Shown here piece by piece: positions 3,506 through 42,447 of a DNA stretch of 64,000 bases. This DNA comes from a phage, in NCBI GenBank assembly GCA_018015315.1, contig GCA_018015315.1_3629.1; one strand, given 5' to 3'. Position 1 is the first letter of the stretch. Each line of letters begins with the position of its first letter. The notes beneath the pieces were generated by a model. That model did not search any database and had not been told where the DNA came from. It saw nothing but the letters and a program-made list of their open reading frames with translations. Position numbers and translations under genes: made by a program.

Positions 3506-3979
3506 TTAGATAATACCTGCAAGACCTGCTAGGCCAGTAAGAGCACCAGTGATGTTATCACGGTTGAGCCATGCATCCAGAATACCGATATCCCAGTCCA
3601 GTTGACCTACTTCGGTTCCGTAAGTCAGGTCAGGCTGTTTCTGGATCCAACCGATTGTGGAAATACCAGGACCCTGGCTACCTTCCAGCAGAACCGGGAA
3701 GAATACCAGACCAGTAATCGATGCCTGTTTCTGCCAGTCAGAAAGGTAAGCGTTCCATACAGAAGTGTTCTGCAAAGATACAGTCATAACACCAGATTGG
3801 TTACGAGACAGGGCCGCAGACATTTCGCCATCCACACCAACGTGAGGGTAGATGTTGTCTTCGTTTCTTGAAACAACGATCTTGGTGTCAGCAGCGAAGC
3901 CAGTGACACGCTGCTGCATCAGGTACAGTTTGACCTTTTTAGGATCATAAGCATAAGGAGTTAAAATTTGAGTTTCCAT
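3506..3979 (-). CDS. tail tube protein
   Basis: 157 aa ORF immediately downstream of sheath gene; high-expression codon usage. Confidence 0.5.
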   Translation of the reverse strand: METQILTPYAYDPKKVKLYLMQQRVTGFAADTKIVVSRNEDNIYPHVGVDGEMSAALSRNQSGVMTVSLQNTSVWNAYLSDWQKQASITGLVFFPVLLEGSQGPGISTIGWIQKQPDLTYGTEVGQLDWDIGILDAWLNRDNITGALTGLAGLAGII

Positions 3980-3989
3980 CTAGTCTTCC

Positions 3990-5366
3990 TTATTCAGTCA
4001 TTGCAACAGCATTGGTGGATTTAGAACCAACTTTGTCCAGAAGGACGTTGATCCGGATACGAACGAAGTGCAGGGCGTTGTTATACACCAGTTCTACTTT
4101 CACACCTTCCAGAACACGAGCAGCCAACTGATTGGTTGGAATCTCTGCACGTTTAGGAACTGTGATGATCGGGTCGTAGAACACATTGTTGTCTTCGTCA
4201 AAACCTGTCAGGATCGCACCATTCTTAATGCCAGTGTTGATTGGGTTGTTCATCAGGACAGACTTGATAACCGGAAGATCATCATCAGACATCTTCATGC
4301 TTAAACCCATGTTGGAGCGACGATGCATGTACCCAAACATAGATTCTTCAGATCTGAACTTGATCCAGTGTGCAAAACGAATAGCGTCTGCATACTGACC
4401 TGAAGCACACTTACCTTCCCAGAAAGCACCAACACCGTTAATCATTCTGTAGAAGTTAACGTGGTTTTCCCAAATAGCCATACGCTGAGTTAAAGTCAGA
4501 GACGGTGCAATCACACCTGGCATCTGTTTTAAGTGCAAGCTGTCGCCGTAAGACGGATCGTTGGATGCCATAGCACCTATGATACCACCCTCCGGGAAGT
4601 CCTTATCTGCACGAGGATCGTACATGCCGACACTGTCATATTGTGCAGCTTTCAGTTTGGTGGCGATGTTATTATCTTTACCCGTCACATCTTCTGCAGT
4701 AGAGTAGACATGCAGCTTGTAGTTAGCCTGAGCCCACTTAGCACATGCTTCAATGTCGGTGTGGTCTTCATGGCACAGGAAGTACCAATTGTCACGCTCA
4801 GCATTGATCTTATCAACTACTGTAGAAGGTTTTTCAGCATTGGCGATATTTTTGATTGTATAGTTACCAGTATGGTAACCAACAGTACAGTCACCAGTGA
4901 TGGTGAGAACACCTTCAGAAGCCTCTACAGTGATATCGTCCAAGTTATCATCTGCTTCGATTTTAGTCTTCATTGACTCTGCAATCTGAGTTGCAGCTGT
5001 TCCACCAGAGATAGGGACTATCAAAGAGGTATTGTAGCTACCTTTTGCAATAGTCATTACGACATCGGTATCAGCTGCGGCAGCAATACCTTTAAAATCT
5101 ACAGTGGTCTTTTCTTTGGCCTGTCTGCCGATCATAACGTATTGTGGAGGGAATACACCACCAAAAGCTTTTGCTGCAAACTCATACGCTGCAGAGCCTT
5201 GTGCGAAACCATCTTCCACCATCTGATCCAGCTCTGCATATACGCGAGCTCGCTCAGTAAAGTTGTTGTGGATAGCGATGAACAGGGGAGTTTCGAAACC
5301 TACAGTGTCAATAGGCTGGGTTCCGAGGTTAACTGTAACATCTACCACTTTATCTAAATATGGCAT
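3990..5366 (-). CDS. contractile tail sheath protein
   Basis: 458 aa; size and position (before tube, chaperones, tape measure); strongly biased codon usage. Confidence 0.6.
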   Translation of the reverse strand: MPYLDKVVDVTVNLGTQPIDTVGFETPLFIAIHNNFTERARVYAELDQMVEDGFAQGSAAYEFAAKAFGGVFPPQYVMIGRQAKEKTTVDFKGIAAAADTDVVMTIAKGSYNTSLIVPISGGTAATQIAESMKTKIEADDNLDDITVEASEGVLTITGDCTVGYHTGNYTIKNIANAEKPSTVVDKINAERDNWYFLCHEDHTDIEACAKWAQANYKLHVYSTAEDVTGKDNNIATKLKAAQYDSVGMYDPRADKDFPEGGIIGAMASNDPSYGDSLHLKQMPGVIAPSLTLTQRMAIWENHVNFYRMINGVGAFWEGKCASGQYADAIRFAHWIKFRSEESMFGYMHRRSNMGLSMKMSDDDLPVIKSVLMNNPINTGIKNGAILTGFDEDNNVFYDPIITVPKRAEIPTNQLAARVLEGVKVELVYNNALHFVRIRINVLLDKVGSKSTNAVAMTE

Positions 5367-35778: not shown

Positions 35779-38090
35779 TCACCAAGGTAATTAAAAGCAA
35801 CGGATGTGAAGTGGCATTCGATCCAGAACGTTTAAATAAGGCAGCTATTTTCGGTGACGACGGTAACGGCAATTGGTCACACATTGCACTGGATGCATAC
35901 AAACGACTGTATGATGGATGTACAACTAAAGAAGTTAACCAAGCTATCATAGACTCCTGTGTTAGCCGTAAAGACGAAGAACATTCCCGTATGGCTGGTC
36001 GTGTTCTTATTGGTCAGATTTATAAAGAGGCTTTTGGAGGGTTTACAAAGATCCCTTCCTTACCATCATTTTACAATACCATGGTTGAGAAAGGGTATTG
36101 GGAGGATATGGGCTATAGCTTTACCGAGCTAAACACTTTAGACGCTGTTATTGACCACAGTAAAGATCTCGGTTATGGCTATGCAGTCCTTAAACAGTTT
36201 CGCGACAAATACGGGATCAAGGATACTCTTAAAGACACCTTGTTTGAATCTCCCCAGATGATGTTTATGGGGATAGCAATGGCTGTCATGAAGAATATGC
36301 CGAAAGAACGTCGTATCAACGATGTTGTAAAATTATACACTTATCTGTCCGACTTAAAGATCAATGCCCCGACACCGTACTTAAACGGGCTGCGCACAGG
36401 TAAGACAGGGTATGCATCTTGTTGTGTAATAAAAGCTGATGATACAGCAAAATCTATTGGTGTGGCACGTGAAGTTGCGTACACAATGACGGTTAACCAA
36501 GCAGGTATCGGCTACTATTTATCATCAAGATCTGCAGGCGATGGTGTTCGTGGTAACACTATTAAACACATGGGTAAGATTCCATATTATCGAGGTATTG
36601 ATGCTGGGGTTAAGGAGAACAGACAACAATCACGTGGCGGTTCTGCAACAGTATCATTCCTTGCACTAGACCCGCAGATTGATGAGCTAATCCGTTTGAG
36701 AAACCCTATGACTGTTGCTTCAAAAAGAATCAACACCATGGACTACTCTATAGGTATTAATAGATCGTTTATCAACCGTGTGGCTAAGAATTTAGATTGG
36801 ATGCTTGTTTCTTATAAGCACGCGCCTCAACTGCATGAAGGTATCTTCACCATGTCTATGGAGGAGTTTGATGCAGAGGTTGATCGTATCGCTAAAGATG
36901 ACAGTATTCCTAAAACATGGATCCGAGCTAGAGATCTTGCTGTTGAACTGCTCACGCAGCGTATTGAGGTTGGAAGGCTGTTCGTATACTGGACAGACGA
37001 GATGAATAGACATACACCTTTTAAAGATGTGATCTATTCAAGTAACCTGTGTGCAGAAATAGCCCTCCCGACAAAAGGCTATTCAGATATGCGTAATATC
37101 TTCAAGCACGATGTTGATGATGGCGAAGTTGCATTGTGCTTCCTGTCATCACTTGTAGCTGGAAGGGTTACCCCAGAGGAGTATGAGGATGTTGCATATT
37201 ACACGGTGCTTATGATTGACAATGTTATGGAAATCATGACATATCCGTATGAAAATATGGAGAGCACTGTTAAAAAACGCAGATCCATCGGAGTTGGCCT
37301 TACCAATGTTGCACATTTTATTGCCAGCCACAAGGTTACTTACGGATCTCCTGAAAGTAAACAGCTTGTTCACGATCTTGCAGAACTTCACAGCTACAGC
37401 TTGCATAAGGCAAGTTTACGATTGGCAAAAGAGCGTGGTGTCTGTGAGTGGATGCATAAAACAAAATACCCGGAGGGTTGGTTACCAATCGACACCTATA
37501 ACAAAGAGGTCGATAGCGTGGTGAAAGATCCTTCTCTTAAACAGGATTGGGAAGGGTTACGTAAAGAAATCATTGAAAATGGTGGGCTACGTAATAGCGT
37601 TCTTGAAGCATATATGCCTAATGAAAGCTCTTCGCTGGCAACAAACACCACTAACGGGGTTTATCCTGTCCGTGAGCACATTATCTTTAAAAAGTCGCCA
37701 CAAGGGCAGGTGCTATTTATCGTTCCTGACTATGATGAGTTGAAAAAGTATTACACTTCGGCTTGGGACGTTGATACTAACGACATGATCGATATGTATG
37801 CTGTGATTCAAAAATTCACAGGTCAGGCAATCAGCGCGGATTTATACATAGACTACACCAAGTTGAAAGATGGTAAAATTTCAATGAAGGAGCAGCTAGG
37901 GTACCTTATCCGTGCCACTAAATTCGGGATGAAGACATGGTATTATTTAAACTCTAGGGTTGGTGCTGGTGACTCCTTGGCAGAGGAACTTCATGCCAAG
38001 AAACAGGCTGAAGATGAAACCAGAAAGAACTACCCTTTGATTGCAGATAGTTCAGTTGAAGATCCGTATTGCGAAAGCTGTGCACTATAA
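35775..38090 (+). CDS. nrdA: ribonucleotide reductase class Ia alpha subunit
   Basis: 771 aa; N-terminal ATP-cone, active-site NLCAEIALP, C-terminal CESCAL tail. Confidence 0.95.
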   Translation: MITKVIKSNGCEVAFDPERLNKAAIFGDDGNGNWSHIALDAYKRLYDGCTTKEVNQAIIDSCVSRKDEEHSRMAGRVLIGQIYKEAFGGFTKIPSLPSFYNTMVEKGYWEDMGYSFTELNTLDAVIDHSKDLGYGYAVLKQFRDKYGIKDTLKDTLFESPQMMFMGIAMAVMKNMPKERRINDVVKLYTYLSDLKINAPTPYLNGLRTGKTGYASCCVIKADDTAKSIGVAREVAYTMTVNQAGIGYYLSSRSAGDGVRGNTIKHMGKIPYYRGIDAGVKENRQQSRGGSATVSFLALDPQIDELIRLRNPMTVASKRINTMDYSIGINRSFINRVAKNLDWMLVSYKHAPQLHEGIFTMSMEEFDAEVDRIAKDDSIPKTWIRARDLAVELLTQRIEVGRLFVYWTDEMNRHTPFKDVIYSSNLCAEIALPTKGYSDMRNIFKHDVDDGEVALCFLSSLVAGRVTPEEYEDVAYYTVLMIDNVMEIMTYPYENMESTVKKRRSIGVGLTNVAHFIASHKVTYGSPESKQLVHDLAELHSYSLHKASLRLAKERGVCEWMHKTKYPEGWLPIDTYNKEVDSVVKDPSLKQDWEGLRKEIIENGGLRNSVLEAYMPNESSSLATNTTNGVYPVREHIIFKKSPQGQVLFIVPDYDELKKYYTSAWDVDTNDMIDMYAVIQKFTGQAISADLYIDYTKLKDGKISMKEQLGYLIRATKFGMKTWYYLNSRVGAGDSLAEELHAKKQAEDETRKNYPLIADSSVEDPYCESCAL

Positions 38091-38097
38091 TTTTAAA

Positions 38098-38116
38098 GGG
38101 GCTTCGGCCCCATTTT
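38098..38116 (+). terminator. hairpin terminator/attenuator between nrdA and nrdB
   Basis: GGGGC-TTCG-GCCCC followed by ATTTT, 12 bp before nrdB start. Confidence 0.45.
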
Positions 38117-38128
38117 AGAGGTAGAATA

Positions 38129-39217
38129 ATGGCTGTATTTAATGCTGAGAACACCGCTCATAAAACTGGTGACTATCCGCTGTTTCTGGGACAGCAAATG
38201 GGTATGTACGACTCTATCAACAAAAAATATCCACAACTGTTCGAACTGTACAAAAAACAAAAAGAACAAGACTGGGCAGAGGATGAAGTGGATTTGTCGC
38301 AATCTATTTCAGATTTTGTAACATGCTCCAAGTCAACTTATGATGTGATGGTGCAGACCTTGATGTGGCAATGGGAGGCTGATAGCGTTGCGGCAAGATC
38401 GATCATCTGCCTCTTTTCACCATTCATCACTAATAGTGAGCTTTTCACTCTATTGATGAAACAGTCAGAGATTGAAGTTCTTCACGCACTAACTTACTCA
38501 GAGATTGTTAGACAATGCCTCCCCAATGCCCGTGAGATTATAGAAGAGATTCAGGAAAACCAAAACGTTCTGAGCAGATCTGGCGTTATTGTCAAATACA
38601 TGCAAGAGCTTGAGGTTATTGGTGCAAAATACCGACTGGATCCTTCTAGTGTTGAAGAGGATATTGTGCGGAAATGCATTCTTAGAGCGCTTTTTGCACT
38701 TTTAGCCCTGGAAAGTATTGAGTTTATTGCAAGTTTTGCATGCACTTTCGCAGTAGCTGAACAGGGTATTTTTGTTCAGGTGGCGCAGCTTGTTCAAAAA
38801 ATCATGCTTGACGAAATGCTACATTCGAAAGGTGATTTTGCCATCATTGATATCCTGCTTAATGATCCGGCATGGGAGAAAAGCTTCCTTGAGATAAAAG
38901 GGGAGTTAAAAGAGATTCTTGATGAAGTACGAACCAAAGAGTACGGTTGGAGTGACTACATTTTCAGCGAAGGAAGAGCGATTATAGGTCTTAACTCACC
39001 GTTGCTTAAAGAATGGGTTGACTATAACTGCTCACCGATTTATGATTACTACGGCATCGACAAAGACTTTGTGCCGCCAACAAAGGACCCTCTACCGTTT
39101 ATGCAGGTGTGGATGAAACCTTCATTGCAACAGACGGCGAACCAAGAAATGTCGAACACTGACTACCGCGTCAACACAACTGTTAATGACGCTGAAGAAG
39201 AAATTTGGGAGTTTTAA
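38129..39217 (+). CDS. nrdB: ribonucleotide reductase class Ia beta subunit
   Basis: start at MAVFNAENT with AGAGGTAG RBS; ferritin-like di-iron fold implied by size and context. Confidence 0.9.
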   Translation: MAVFNAENTAHKTGDYPLFLGQQMGMYDSINKKYPQLFELYKKQKEQDWAEDEVDLSQSISDFVTCSKSTYDVMVQTLMWQWEADSVAARSIICLFSPFITNSELFTLLMKQSEIEVLHALTYSEIVRQCLPNAREIIEEIQENQNVLSRSGVIVKYMQELEVIGAKYRLDPSSVEEDIVRKCILRALFALLALESIEFIASFACTFAVAEQGIFVQVAQLVQKIMLDEMLHSKGDFAIIDILLNDPAWEKSFLEIKGELKEILDEVRTKEYGWSDYIFSEGRAIIGLNSPLLKEWVDYNCSPIYDYYGIDKDFVPPTKDPLPFMQVWMKPSLQQTANQEMSNTDYRVNTTVNDAEEEIWEF

Positions 39218-39220
39218 TAC

Positions 39221-39499
39221 ATGAGCTGTGAAAAATCTTTTTTCTTTATTATTTACGGTAAAGATAACTGCCCACATTGTGTAAGAGCAAAAGAATTTGC
39301 AGTCAGTAAAGGTCTGCCTTTTGTATATAAGACACTTGGCGAGGGTTACACAAAAGAAGAGCTTATTGAGAAGTGCAGTCCAATCGTACCCAGAACGTTG
39401 CCGCAGATCTTCTTAGAAAGCAATCTTGAAAGTGTCCATATAGGCGGTGCCGACGATTTCATCTCTTTTGTTAAGAATGGTTTTGGAGAGAAAAAGTGA
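39221..39499 (+). CDS. glutaredoxin/NrdH-like redoxin
   Basis: 92 aa; CPHC active site near N-terminus; between nrdB and nrdD. Confidence 0.8.
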   Translation: MSCEKSFFFIIYGKDNCPHCVRAKEFAVSKGLPFVYKTLGEGYTKEELIEKCSPIVPRTLPQIFLESNLESVHIGGADDFISFVKNGFGEKK

Positions 39500-41619
39500 A
39501 AGTTGTAAAACGGGACGGTAGAGAAGAGGTCTATAACGGAATTAAGGTGATCAAGGCGGCAGAGTCCGCCTTACTTGAGTCTGGACATACTGAAGAAGAA
39601 GCTTACCGGATCGCCTGTGCGGTTAATGAAGTTGTTGCTAACAATCTACCAACCGATCAGTGCACGATCTCTGTAAAAAATATCCATATCCTTGTTGAAG
39701 ATGCTCTTATGGATATGGGTTTAAAATGTGCAGCCAGAGAATACATCCAGTATAGGCAGACAAGAGATAATAACAGAGAGGCAGGTGGAAAACTGCTTGC
39801 AGATATTAGTGGCTTCTTGGATCGCACTTGTGATGAATTTACAAAAGAAAACGCAAATAAGCCTACCAATCATGTACACACTCATCGTGACCTGCTTGCA
39901 GGCATCCTTAGCAAACACCTTGCATCAACACAGATCCTGCCAGACCGTGTCTCAGAAGAGCACAATAAAGGCTTCATCCATGTGCATGATCTTGACTACT
40001 TGATCAGTCCGTTAACAAACTGTTGTTTGGTAAATTATCCAGATATGTTGGAAAACGGATTCAACATTGGCAACGCCCATGTCAGTAAGCCGAAGTCAAT
40101 AGGGGTTGCAACAACAATCCTTAGCCAAATCTCTAGTGCAGTAGCTAGTGCTCAATATGGAGGTCAGACTATGAGCCATATTGATCATTATCTGGCACAG
40201 TATGCTGAGGCGACCTATGAGAAGAATCTTAAATTTTGCCAGGAACACTGGTTGCCAGATGCTGAGACTGTTGCAATGCAAATGACAGATAAAGACGTAT
40301 TTGACAGCATGCAGACTTTGCTCTATCAAATCAATACGTTAACCTCTGTCAACGGGCAAACTCCATTCATCACATTAAGTTTAGGACTGGATACCTCGGT
40401 CTTTGGTAGAATGATTACCAAAAACTACTTGAAAGTCCACAAAATGGGTCTTGGTGAAGAACGTATCACACCTGTGTTCCCTAAAGTGCTGTTCTTCCTA
40501 GAAGAGGGTGTCAACATGAGCCCTGGAGATCCCAACTATGATTTGAAACGATTAGCTCTGGAATGCTCTGCAGAGCGGATTTATCCTGACTTTGTTTCTG
40601 TTCCACTAAATCGTAAAGTGACAGGCTCGACAGATGGCAAAGTAACGAGCATGGGTTGCCGGAGTTTTCTTAGCAAATACAATGACTTGGAAACAGGCGA
40701 GGAGAAATACCTTGGTAGATTTAACTTAGGCGTTGTTAGCCTTAACCTGCCAATGATTGCGGCAAAAGCTAAAACGGAAGGTGTTGATTTCTTTGCAGTT
40801 CTTGACGAATACCTGGATCTTGCATACGAGGCTCACCTTGTAAGGGTTAACCGTCTAAAAGGAACAAAGGCAGGGCAGAACCCTATCATGTGGTGTGAAG
40901 GCGCTCTTGCTCGCCTGGATCCTGAAGAGAGTATTGATAAACTCTTCTATGACGGGTACGCTTCCATCAGTATTGGGTATATTGGTGTGTATGAAACCTG
41001 TCAGATTTTGGGCAGGGAGGGTGACAAGGCTTTAGCTCTTGGAATACTCCAGCACATGAGAGATGCTTGTGAGCGATACAAGAAGGAAAGTAGACTAGCG
41101 TTTAGCTTGTACGGCACCCCTTCTGAGAGTCTATGCTATAAAGCTGCAACCTGTCTGGATCGTGAATATCCTGAAGTGTTGAAGCACGAGCATGAATATC
41201 TCACCAACAGTTTCCATCAGCCAGTATGGATCAATAGCTCTCCTTTTGATAAGTGGGAGTATGAGGAAGGTTTTGCTATGATCTCCTCTGGTGGCAACAT
41301 CGGATACGTAGAGACACCAAATCTGAAAAACAACTTAGATGCTTTGGAAGCTCTTGTTGATTTCGGATATAAACACATTATGTATTTTGGTATCAACCAG
41401 CCTGTGGATAAATGTCTTAAGTGTGGTTTCTCTGGTGAGTTCAGTGCAACAGCTAAGGGATTCGTATGCCCAGAGTGTGGAAACCATGAAGAGGGAACGA
41501 TCAGTGTGATCAGACGTGTATCCGGGTACCTGTCTAGTCCAAACTCCCGTCCTTACAATAAAGGTAAGCAAGCGGAAGTTATAGAACGGGTTAAGCACTA
41601 CGGAAGTTGTGGTTGCTGA
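39496..41619 (+). CDS. nrdD: anaerobic ribonucleotide reductase class III
   Basis: 707 aa; N-terminal ATP-cone; C-terminal zinc site CLKCG...CPECG and glycyl-radical motif RRVSGYL. Confidence 0.9.
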   Translation: MKVVKRDGREEVYNGIKVIKAAESALLESGHTEEEAYRIACAVNEVVANNLPTDQCTISVKNIHILVEDALMDMGLKCAAREYIQYRQTRDNNREAGGKLLADISGFLDRTCDEFTKENANKPTNHVHTHRDLLAGILSKHLASTQILPDRVSEEHNKGFIHVHDLDYLISPLTNCCLVNYPDMLENGFNIGNAHVSKPKSIGVATTILSQISSAVASAQYGGQTMSHIDHYLAQYAEATYEKNLKFCQEHWLPDAETVAMQMTDKDVFDSMQTLLYQINTLTSVNGQTPFITLSLGLDTSVFGRMITKNYLKVHKMGLGEERITPVFPKVLFFLEEGVNMSPGDPNYDLKRLALECSAERIYPDFVSVPLNRKVTGSTDGKVTSMGCRSFLSKYNDLETGEEKYLGRFNLGVVSLNLPMIAAKAKTEGVDFFAVLDEYLDLAYEAHLVRVNRLKGTKAGQNPIMWCEGALARLDPEESIDKLFYDGYASISIGYIGVYETCQILGREGDKALALGILQHMRDACERYKKESRLAFSLYGTPSESLCYKAATCLDREYPEVLKHEHEYLTNSFHQPVWINSSPFDKWEYEEGFAMISSGGNIGYVETPNLKNNLDALEALVDFGYKHIMYFGINQPVDKCLKCGFSGEFSATAKGFVCPECGNHEEGTISVIRRVSGYLSSPNSRPYNKGKQAEVIERVKHYGSCGC

Positions 41620-41682
41620 TACTTGACAAAAGCCACAAGGATGTGGCATATTATTGACACACAGTGAGCTAGGAGGTACAGT

Positions 41683-41799
41683 ATGTCTACAGGTATTTAT
41701 AAAATTTGCAAGTGTGGTTGTCGTTGCAATCTTCGTTGGTGCAAGGCACTGGACGATTTTATTTGGCATTGCCCTAAATGTGATGCGGAGTATCTATGA
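41683..41799 (+). CDS. small Cys-rich zinc-ribbon-like protein (38 aa)
   Basis: AGGAGG RBS 7 bp upstream of ATG; 8 Cys in 38 aa; stop overlaps nrdG ATG. Confidence 0.4.
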   Translation: MSTGIYKICKCGCRCNLRWCKALDDFIWHCPKCDAEYL

Positions 41800-42269
41800 A
41801 TATTGCCGGATACACAGAAATATCTTACACCGAAGGGCCAGGTATTAGAACTGCCTTGTGGGTATCTGGGTGCCCACACGCTTGCCCTGGTTGCTTTAAT
41901 CAGGCATTTTGGTCAAAAGATAAGGGAAGGGAGTTTACTGAAGAAGACTTGCAAAAAATCTTGTCAGATTTAGATAACCCGTCTGTGTGCGGTATCTCTC
42001 TGCTGGGTGGAGAACCCTTAGCATACTATAATGAGCCAGATATTATTAGCCTGATGGAGAAAATTAAGGAAAAATTTGGTGACAAGAAAACTATTCTTGT
42101 ATATACTGGGTTCACATTTGACCATATCTCTAGTGATGTTCTTAAACTGGCTGATATCATCATTGACGGTAAGTATGTAAAAGATTTACCAACCAAGAAA
42201 CCGTTCCGAGGCAGTGATAACCAAAGAATGTTTAAAAAAGTATCAGGCGGTTGGGTTCAGGTAGACTAG
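41796..42269 (+). CDS. nrdG: anaerobic RNR activating enzyme (radical SAM)
   Basis: 157 aa; CPHACPGC cluster motif; follows nrdD. Confidence 0.85.
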   Translation: MNIAGYTEISYTEGPGIRTALWVSGCPHACPGCFNQAFWSKDKGREFTEEDLQKILSDLDNPSVCGISLLGGEPLAYYNEPDIISLMEKIKEKFGDKKTILVYTGFTFDHISSDVLKLADIIIDGKYVKDLPTKKPFRGSDNQRMFKKVSGGWVQVD

Positions 42270-42272
42270 CTG

Positions 42273-42302
42273 TTGACAAAGCTTTGTTTAGATAGGTATA
42301 GT
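42273..42302 (+). promoter_or_regulatory. sigma70-like promoter
   Basis: TTGACA-18 bp-TATAGT. Confidence 0.45.
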
Positions 42303-42333
42303 TATCGTAAAATGAAAGCAGAGGAGGTGCCAA

Positions 42334-42447
42334 ATGGCTAAAAAAGCCTTGAAGAAGGCGTACAAAAAAGAAATTGCGCTTGAGCTTAAGAAAAAACACA
42401 AGCGTGAAAAGAAACATCATGAGGATGAAGAGGTGGTGCAACAGTGA
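42334..42447 (+). CDS. small basic protein (37 aa)
   Basis: GAGGAGG RBS; Lys-rich; stop overlaps GTG start of next gene. Confidence 0.3.
   Translation: MAKKALKKAYKKEIALELKKKHKREKKHHEDEEVVQQ

Follow-up and report, generated by a model that had tools for sequence, protein, structure and literature searches.

Here, we examine a 38-codon, cysteine-rich micro-gene, called X in what follows, that lies on the + strand at positions 41683..41799 of a 64,000-nucleotide stretch of phage DNA (contig GCA_018015315.1_3629.1 of assembly GCA_018015315.1; the whole stretch is the window). The region is 99.5% identical to rV5-like coliphages (genus Vequintavirus), and its gene order is nrdB, a glutaredoxin gene, nrdD, a spacer of 63 nucleotides, X, nrdG, small open reading frames (ORFs), and phoH. 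The 5′ neighbour, nrdD (39496..41619, + strand), encodes the 707-residue catalytic subunit of a class III ribonucleotide reductase, 99.3% identical to rV5 gp108, and the 3′ neighbour, nrdG (41796..42269, + strand), encodes a 157-residue radical-SAM activase with tblastn matches in 2237 phage records.

X opens at an ATG placed 6 nucleotides 3′ of a Shine-Dalgarno sequence, AGGAGG (41671..41676, + strand), and runs for 38 codons plus a stop. Its product, MSTGIYKICKCGCRCNLRWCKALDDFIWHCPKCDAEYL, has seven cysteines, at positions 9, 11, 13, 15, 20, 30, and 33, which form the pattern CxCxCxC-x4-C-x9-CxxC. The final codons (GCG GAG TAT CTA; Ala-Glu-Tyr) contain a GGAG (41787..41790, + strand) that lies 5 nucleotides before the nrdG ATG and is labelled as the nrdG ribosome-binding site in the Murica record; this GGAG is the Shine-Dalgarno sequence for nrdG, and it is brought by the X cassette. 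The stop codon of X (TGA, 41797-41799) lies over the start codon of nrdG (ATG, 41796-41798) in an ATGA junction (41796..41799, + strand), and X is translationally coupled to nrdG in the window. The original prediction, made from the letters of the window, had described a 38-residue ORF with an AGGAGG ribosome-binding site, an ATG, and a stop overlapping the nrdG start, all of which is borne out; its count of eight cysteines is corrected here to seven.

Among the 11 relatives that we compared, a Shine-Dalgarno-like element (AGGAGG, AGGAG, AAGGAG, or GAGGA) stands at the same distance before the ATG in all 11, regardless of the upstream sequence. GGAGTA is found at the end of X in nine of them, including the Vectrevirus copy that precedes a DNA ligase gene, and reads AGAGTA in two copies of the 54-residue type. 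The ATGA overlap with the next gene is present in ten, the exception being rV5, in which two genes are inserted after X. A cysteine density of this order is rare in the window: in a six-frame scan of the 64 kilobases, at least seven cysteines per 38 residues occurred in 3 places only (18 of 30,117 sliding windows), of which X, the one that was checked for a start codon and a Shine-Dalgarno sequence, has both.

Judged by its pattern of substitution, X is a genuine protein-coding micro-gene under strong purifying selection. A full-length copy is found in 121 phage records (tblastn), and the retention of the frame in other phages, which had been put forward as a check on its reality, holds in these records, with differences that are overwhelmingly synonymous. 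Selection was tested over an ungapped core of 27 codons in 11 copies of X from distinct contexts. Between distant copies, the proportion of synonymous sites that differ (pS) is 0.5-0.99 and that of non-synonymous sites (pN) 0.03-0.11; pN/pS spans 0.04-0.3 overall, with distant pairs at about 0.05-0.15 and their synonymous sites close to saturation. Between the window and locus L005, which belongs to a lineage with a longer, 53/54-residue form, 11.5 of 15 synonymous sites differ as against 3.5 of 66 non-synonymous sites (Fisher p=3e-8), and the synonymous excess is likewise strong for rV5 against L005 (p=2e-12) and for the window against the Vectrevirus copy in phage ACG-C91 (p=7e-5). Of the possible frames, only that of X runs uninterrupted through all 11 relatives. 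As for a structured or otherwise known RNA element in place of a gene, no Rfam covariance model matches the region at E up to 1 and the fold of its RNA is no more stable than that of shuffled sequence (z=-0.30), which rules this candidate out. We thus read X as coding because its changes are dominated by synonymous substitutions, its frame is the sole open one, the Shine-Dalgarno sequence and ATGA recur, and no RNA-element signal is present.

The X family comes in several sizes: a 38-residue form in Vequintavirus, a 41-residue form, a 53/54-residue form with a Lys/Glu-rich N-terminal extension, and a 36-residue form. The C-terminal signature C-x(1-2)-CGCxCxLRWC-x9-CPxC-xxEYL fits 18 of 18 distinct members, the window protein included, and the seven cysteines are invariant in all of them, even in P0019, a 61%-identical member with glutamate in place of three lysines. 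Of the two knuckles, the second (CPKC) is canonical; for the window protein the first is CKC-G, as against CK[DH]CG for the 41- and 53/54-residue variants. Given the invariant cysteines and the knuckle motifs, X most likely folds around a metal, probably zinc, as a mini zinc-ribbon-like module. An AlphaFold2 model built on an alignment of 11 sequences places strands at residues 6-8, 14-16, 28-30, and 35-37, as two hairpins around the knuckles, at low confidence (mean predicted local distance difference test score, pLDDT, 54.8).

Database searches brought up no remote homologue of X. The window protein has no Pfam match and nothing significant in NCBIfam or PADLOC, its model has no Foldseek match in the PDB below E=1, and no rubredoxin, Fer2, or Fer4 model of Pfam or NCBIfam was matched even at E up to 10. 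The ACG-C91 variant comes closest to a Pfam family, zf-LITAF-like (E=0.029, 15 bits, below the cut-off of 23.8), and the best sequence and fold neighbours of X, all of them non-significant, are nearly all small zinc modules. A phmmer search of 1.84 billion representative proteins returned only family members plus four spurious repeat or low-complexity proteins, and a profile search of 5.8 billion proteins returned family members only. Genome and metagenome contigs yielded nothing further when scanned (L033 matches out of frame, in a high-GC bacterial contig), and X was absent from 185,579 species genomes (one per species) and from 5,426 Escherichia coli genomes. Hence X appears to be confined to virulent phages. 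The single ‘plasmid’ match is a 137.6-kilobase rV5-like genome (CP057073.1), and 18 ‘Campylobacter phage’ records (host C. jejuni; GenBank MG065635-MG065690) share 94-99.5% identity with E. coli rV5-like phages over this region; these records and the E. coli ‘plasmid’ are likely mislabels of host or molecule. Two proteins were considered as a source of X and rejected: alignment with the C-terminal zinc ribbon of NrdD is limited to the CPxC tetrad, and a family profile compared by hhalign with the zinc fingers of a neighbouring endonuclease, the 386-residue T5orf172/DUF723 protein of O157 typing phage 14, gave a probability of 1.6%.

Two disrupted copies were seen. In phage vB_Eco_Alma (P0002), a frameshift near the C-terminus gives a 61-residue product, and in an ENA contig (P0011) a deletion joins residues 1-20 of X to the C-terminal part of a gp111-like protein. 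Perhaps some genomes can do without X; alternatively, the disruptions may reflect faulty assembly.

X lies between nrdD and the nrdG region in all Vequintavirus records. It holds the same position, with a 4-nucleotide overlap onto nrdG, in a second and deeply diverged myovirus lineage that carries the 53/54-residue form (loci L004-L008 and L011), in which NrdG is 52-55% and PhoH 51% identical to those of the window; the NrdG homologues in L004-L008 have Fer4_12 and Radical_SAM domains. The nearest other phages with nrdD-nrdG, Certrevirus CB7 and Phapecoctavirus ukendt, have a direct overlap of nrdD with nrdG and no micro-ORF, and in Silverhawkium (Ounavirinae) and Maroon (a T4-like Pseudotevenvirus) unrelated genes occupy the position of X. 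The search for such a micro-ORF between nrdD and nrdG in other phages, which had also been suggested as a check, thus has a divided outcome: it is present in Vequintavirus and in the 53/54-residue lineage, but ukendt, CB7, Silverhawkium, and Maroon, the four outgroups inspected, show no general micro-ORF upstream of nrdG.

Other genes have entered the same junction. Phages such as rV5 and inoa carry gp110 and gp111 as an insertion after X (L001, rV5, 3633-4475; L035, inoa, 1169-1875; gp111 is phrog_3249, ‘putative minor capsid protein’), and X is kept, uncoupled from nrdG. The rV5-type nrdG allele is 53% identical to that of the window, with nrdD at 99%, a pattern suggestive of a segment swap bounded on the left by X. 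In O157 typing phage 14 (L014 279-1439), the 386-residue T5orf172/MUG113 (GIY-YIG-like) protein, with DUF723/DUF4379 zinc fingers, lies between nrdD and X and is probably a free-standing homing endonuclease. In the 53/54-residue lineage, nrdD itself is broken into two or three pieces by insertions (L004 2687-5936; L005 1-2936), one of which encodes an HNH_3 protein and may be an intron or a homing element. In T4, the nrdG/nrdD junction is the site of the free-standing homing endonuclease mobC (PMC2988022). The nrdD/nrdG junction is a hotspot for inserted genes.

A second context for X is found in unrelated phages. Homologues that are 61-83% identical occur in Vectrevirus ACG-C91 and in three metagenomic SP6-like lineages, between a nucleotide kinase gene and the DNA ligase gene, where they have a Shine-Dalgarno sequence and an ATGA overlap with the ligase start. 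Neither annotation nor tblastn finds NrdD, NrdG, or NrdB in ACG-C91. The distribution of X does not follow that of nrdD and nrdG. The Vectrevirus kinase/ligase junction has four states: nothing (LL11, SP6), X (ACG-C91), a 38-residue CxxC...CxxC ORF (K1E-type), and a 57-residue ORF (vB_EcoP_B). All three types of insert end in ATGA on the ligase start, and this junction is an insertion hotspot too (junction loci L022 499-615, L023 499-672, L024, and L025). The K1E-type ORF, MTCPNCGSEETEHVVMSDTYHFYFCHSCDTTIEEEEAV, has weak zinc-ribbon matches and belongs to a PHROG labelled ‘DNA ligase’; the 57-residue ORF is phrog_15259.

The edges of the cassette suggest how X may have moved. It is flanked by TATG on the left and by the shared TATGAATAT at the right-hand joint, borders that would fit an insertion by recombination at short identities. 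The ligase start, ATGAATATC, is native to the Vectrevirus phages that have no X (LL11, SP6), and nrdG starts ATGAATAT. Within the Vectrevirus carriers, the ligase is 95-97% identical and X only 67-86%, with charge-reversing changes at non-cysteine positions and the cysteines untouched.

Here, we propose, with moderate confidence, that X is a portable, self-contained micro-gene for a zinc-ribbon-like, metal-binding micro-protein, which relays translation into nrdG. In the 36-54-residue protein, knuckle 1 (C-x(1-2)-C-G) and knuckle 2 (C-P-x-C) would hold the metal, and the remaining three cysteines could coordinate a second metal or make up an interface or intermolecular site. The cassette brings its own Shine-Dalgarno sequence, a GGAG for the next gene, and a stop placed over the next start (ATGA), so that X can precede an essential gene without silencing it. 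In the window, X would have replaced an ancestral nrdD-nrdG overlap, and ribosomes leaving X would feed nrdG. The small protein itself probably works as a binder, and its partner would not be tied to the phage NrdD or NrdG but be at hand even where the phage has no class III reductase; candidates are a component of the host and some generally available factor in nucleotide metabolism, DNA metabolism, or defence. X offers a clean example of a self-contained cassette that slots in front of nrdG or of a DNA ligase gene in unrelated coliphages without polar effects, and it marks two insertion hotspots.

Several points weigh against this proposal. The model of X reaches a mean pLDDT of only 54.8, the window protein matches no zinc-ribbon model of Pfam, and its first knuckle is CxC, which is unusual for a zinc ribbon. 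Both the translation of X and its metal binding are read from sequence. In addition, X has stayed beside nrdD and nrdG in two myovirus lineages whose NrdG and PhoH are only ~52% identical, and its core is 82-88% identical across both, like the C-terminal, glycyl-radical end of NrdD (84-87%) and far above NrdG, all of which would fit a role linked to the reductase. Finally, both contexts of X are modules of nucleotide or DNA metabolism, and that its partner is not specific to ribonucleotide reductase is a reading of its distribution.

What else might X be? One option, which we regard as possible though unlikely, is that X serves the class III reductase as a small, dedicated accessory. It would bind Fe or Zn and partner the phage enzyme, possibly that of the host as well, for example by donating electrons to the [4Fe-4S] cluster of NrdG in the way of a rubredoxin, or by docking on the zinc-ribbon/glycyl-radical end of NrdD. 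Such a role would suit the adjacency to nrdD and nrdG, kept throughout the Vequintavirus records as well as in a second lineage with so distant an NrdG, the retention of X where the nrdG allele has been swapped, as in rV5-type phages, and the conservation of its core at the level of the NrdD C-terminal domain. E. coli encodes its own NrdDG. All carriers of X infect E. coli, so that the SP6-like carriers, whose hosts thereby have the enzyme, are no strict exclusion. Set against this are the absence of X from the nearest nrdDG relatives, with their direct overlap, and from the four outgroups inspected, its presence in Vectrevirus phages without ribonucleotide reductase genes, the two inserted genes that uncouple it from nrdG in rV5-type phages, the lack of any match to a rubredoxin or ferredoxin model, and a likeness to the NrdD zinc ribbon that extends to the CPxC tetrad only. 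The original prediction had suggested a small metal-binding accessory of the anaerobic reductase. Metal binding is plausible from the seven invariant cysteines and the CxxCG/CPxC-type knuckles, but a dedicated accessory is unsupported by the distribution: CB7 and ukendt have nrdD and nrdG without X, and ACG-C91 has X without the reductase genes.

A stronger form of this idea, which we consider improbable, makes X an unrecognised third component of phage class III ribonucleotide reduction, a 38-residue Fe- or Zn-cysteine centre that docks on the NrdD C-terminus or on NrdG, both in the phage and in the host. The centre would then promote or protect the generation of the glycyl radical, for example as a minimal rubredoxin-like donor that frees activation from the host flavodoxin. 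Such a function would account for a conservation of X that equals that of the NrdD C-terminus, despite the drift of NrdG to ~52%, and would also explain how SP6-like phages of the same host can use X without having a reductase of their own. If X did bind NrdD or NrdG, it would be a new player in a well-studied enzyme system; on present evidence this is a minority possibility.

We give little credence to X being a cis regulator in the manner of Com of phage Mu. Com is a 62-residue zinc-finger translational activator, and com overlaps mom. X would, by analogy, bind the mRNA at its own 3′ end (GGAGTATYTATGAATAT, common to the nrdG and ligase contexts) and so set the translation of the downstream gene. 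The architecture of a small cysteine-rich ORF overlapping the next start is that of com-mom, and the junction sequence travels with the cassette into an unrelated phage. However, Vectrevirus phages without X natively start their ligase with ATGAATATC, so that the shared junction is better read as the joint of a recombination. Around the nrdG start, folding predicts no stable inhibitory structure, the gene that follows X in rV5 is a different one and is not overlapped, and X has no likeness to any Pfam zinc-ribbon family, which would include those of Com type.

Very improbable, in our view, is a peptide without function, either in a frame kept open merely as a translational relay or in a non-coding region (promoter or terminator) with a fortuitous ORF. 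There is indeed a promoter-like site with a hairpin in the spacer, a terminator-like hairpin inside the ORF (41736-41752), and, in the Murica record, a terminator at this place with no coding sequence (CDS). Yet the constraint on amino acids is far above what an open frame needs, as seen in the pN/pS of distant pairs and the seven invariant cysteines; the Vectrevirus copies lack the internal hairpin with its T-run, the fold and Rfam results are those of ordinary sequence given above, and the conservation is no artefact of near-identical genomes because synonymous sites are near saturation between the lineages. As to the 64-residue ORF in another frame (41654..41848, + strand), gene callers chose it in the window and the rV5 reference record annotates a similar ORF, gp109, likewise in a frame other than that of X, but that either of these is the real gene and X the artefact is hardly credible, given its TTG start, a nearest Shine-Dalgarno-like sequence ~12 nucleotides off and so outside usable distance (it had been predicted to lack a ribosome-binding site, and does), its 53-nucleotide overlap with nrdG, its stops in 5 of 11 relatives (L003, L014, L005, L002, and L026), and a substitution pattern that fits the frame of X; we judge it not to be a gene.

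These findings have a practical value for annotation. X had been called unannotated, which is right for the gene track of the window and not elsewhere: the identical ORF (tblastn, 100% identity) is an annotated CDS in phages FFH2 (YP_009031017.1, ‘ribonucleotide reductase’) and MaxBurger (QXV82697.1, hypothetical), X is also a CDS in inoa (QHR68597.1, ‘putative anaerobic ribonucleoside-triphosphate reductase’), and the window protein matches the phrog_20137 profile, labelled ‘ribonucleotide reductase’, at E=1.8e-31 with residues 1-38 on positions 1-38. The rV5 reference and several other records miss X or call an out-of-frame ORF, with gp109 in place of X in rV5 and a terminator without an X CDS in Murica, and many other records, along with PHROGs, misname X ‘ribonucleotide reductase’. 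As far as its sequence goes, X has nothing in common with NrdD beyond CPxC; such names come from adjacency or name transfer, without a basis in homology. No paper on the ORF was found in the literature, and the rV5 genome paper is silent on it.

The surroundings of X in the window hold further features. The spacer between nrdD and X contains a promoter-like, sigma-70-like site found by a consensus scan (TTGACA-18-CATATT with a TG extension; 41623..41652, + strand), set around a hairpin, GCCACAAGGATGTGGC (41632-41647), and both are kept in the four Vequintavirus relatives compared with the window. A different hairpin (GGGCCAG...CTGGCCC) stands at this position in the 53/54-residue lineage (L004 5937-6000; L005 2937-3000) and in typing phage 14 (L014 about 1440-1500); a stem-loop directly before X thus recurs, with a sequence that differs between lineages. 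The Vequintavirus NrdD ends in ...VKHYGSCGC* (window 41599-41616), a Cys-Gly-Cys tail after the glycyl-radical domain, whereas the NrdD of L004, L005, Certrevirus, and Phapecoctavirus stops two residues past the VKH/EKH motif (KHFH*, KHLN*, KHS*, KHL*), with no cysteine. That this tail (...SCGC*) and the spacer are a decayed tandem copy of X was considered and rejected, the local alignment score (18) being not significant against other windows of the genome (16.5 +/- 2.9). Directly 3′ of nrdG lies a strong match to a sigma-70-like promoter (TTGACA-18-TATAGT, 11/12 matches; window 42273-42447), which would drive a 37-residue, lysine-rich ORF, MAKKALKKAYKKEIALELKKKHKREKKHHEDEEVVQQ (phrog_7670, no assigned function); these are promoter P118 and gp113 of rV5. 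At the other end of the locus, the mechanical nrdB ORF (38069-39217) opens at a TTG, and the translation suggests that the true start is likely the in-frame ATG ~60 nucleotides downstream (MAVFNAENT...).

How does X compare with systems that are already known? YfaE, the [2Fe-2S] ferredoxin of the E. coli nrdAB operon, and the rubredoxins are the precedent for small metalloproteins that help a reductase, and they are the model behind the accessory first suggested for X. As with YfaE, X is a small cysteine-rich protein encoded in a ribonucleotide reductase gene cluster; unlike these proteins, it matches no ferredoxin or rubredoxin model, spaces its cysteines differently, and is not co-distributed with nrdD and nrdG. 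With Mu Com, X shares small size, richness in cysteine, and a gene placed directly upstream of, and overlapping, the next start, but no sequence relation was found and the genes downstream of X vary (nrdG, ligase, gp110).

Comparable in the kind of site that they occupy are the free-standing mobile genes of T4-like phages, mobC at nrdG/nrdD and mobE at nrdA/nrdB (PMC2988022). Like X, they are promoter-less or self-contained cassettes in an existing operon, with overlapping stop and start codons (PMC2988022), and a T5orf172-type endonuclease adjoins X in O157 typing phage 14. X is, however, far too small for a nuclease, and its likeness to the endonuclease zinc fingers stays at the 1.6% given by hhalign.

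The closest likeness in the protein itself is to the small CPxCG-related zinc finger proteins of haloarchaea (PDB 8q5b; HVO_0758 family), which are also <60 residues long, have CxxCG and CPxC(G) knuckles, and stand alone with no enzymatic domain; some X variants read exactly CPECG. They are the best matches to X and yet are non-significant (E=0.12 for 8q5b, the best PDB sequence match, and 0.36), and X differs from them in having seven cysteines in place of four, in its CxCxCxC run, and in its restriction to virulent coliphages. X is a narrow, uncharacterised, and mislabelled family within a known kind, the stand-alone, cysteine-rich zinc-finger micro-proteins of phages.

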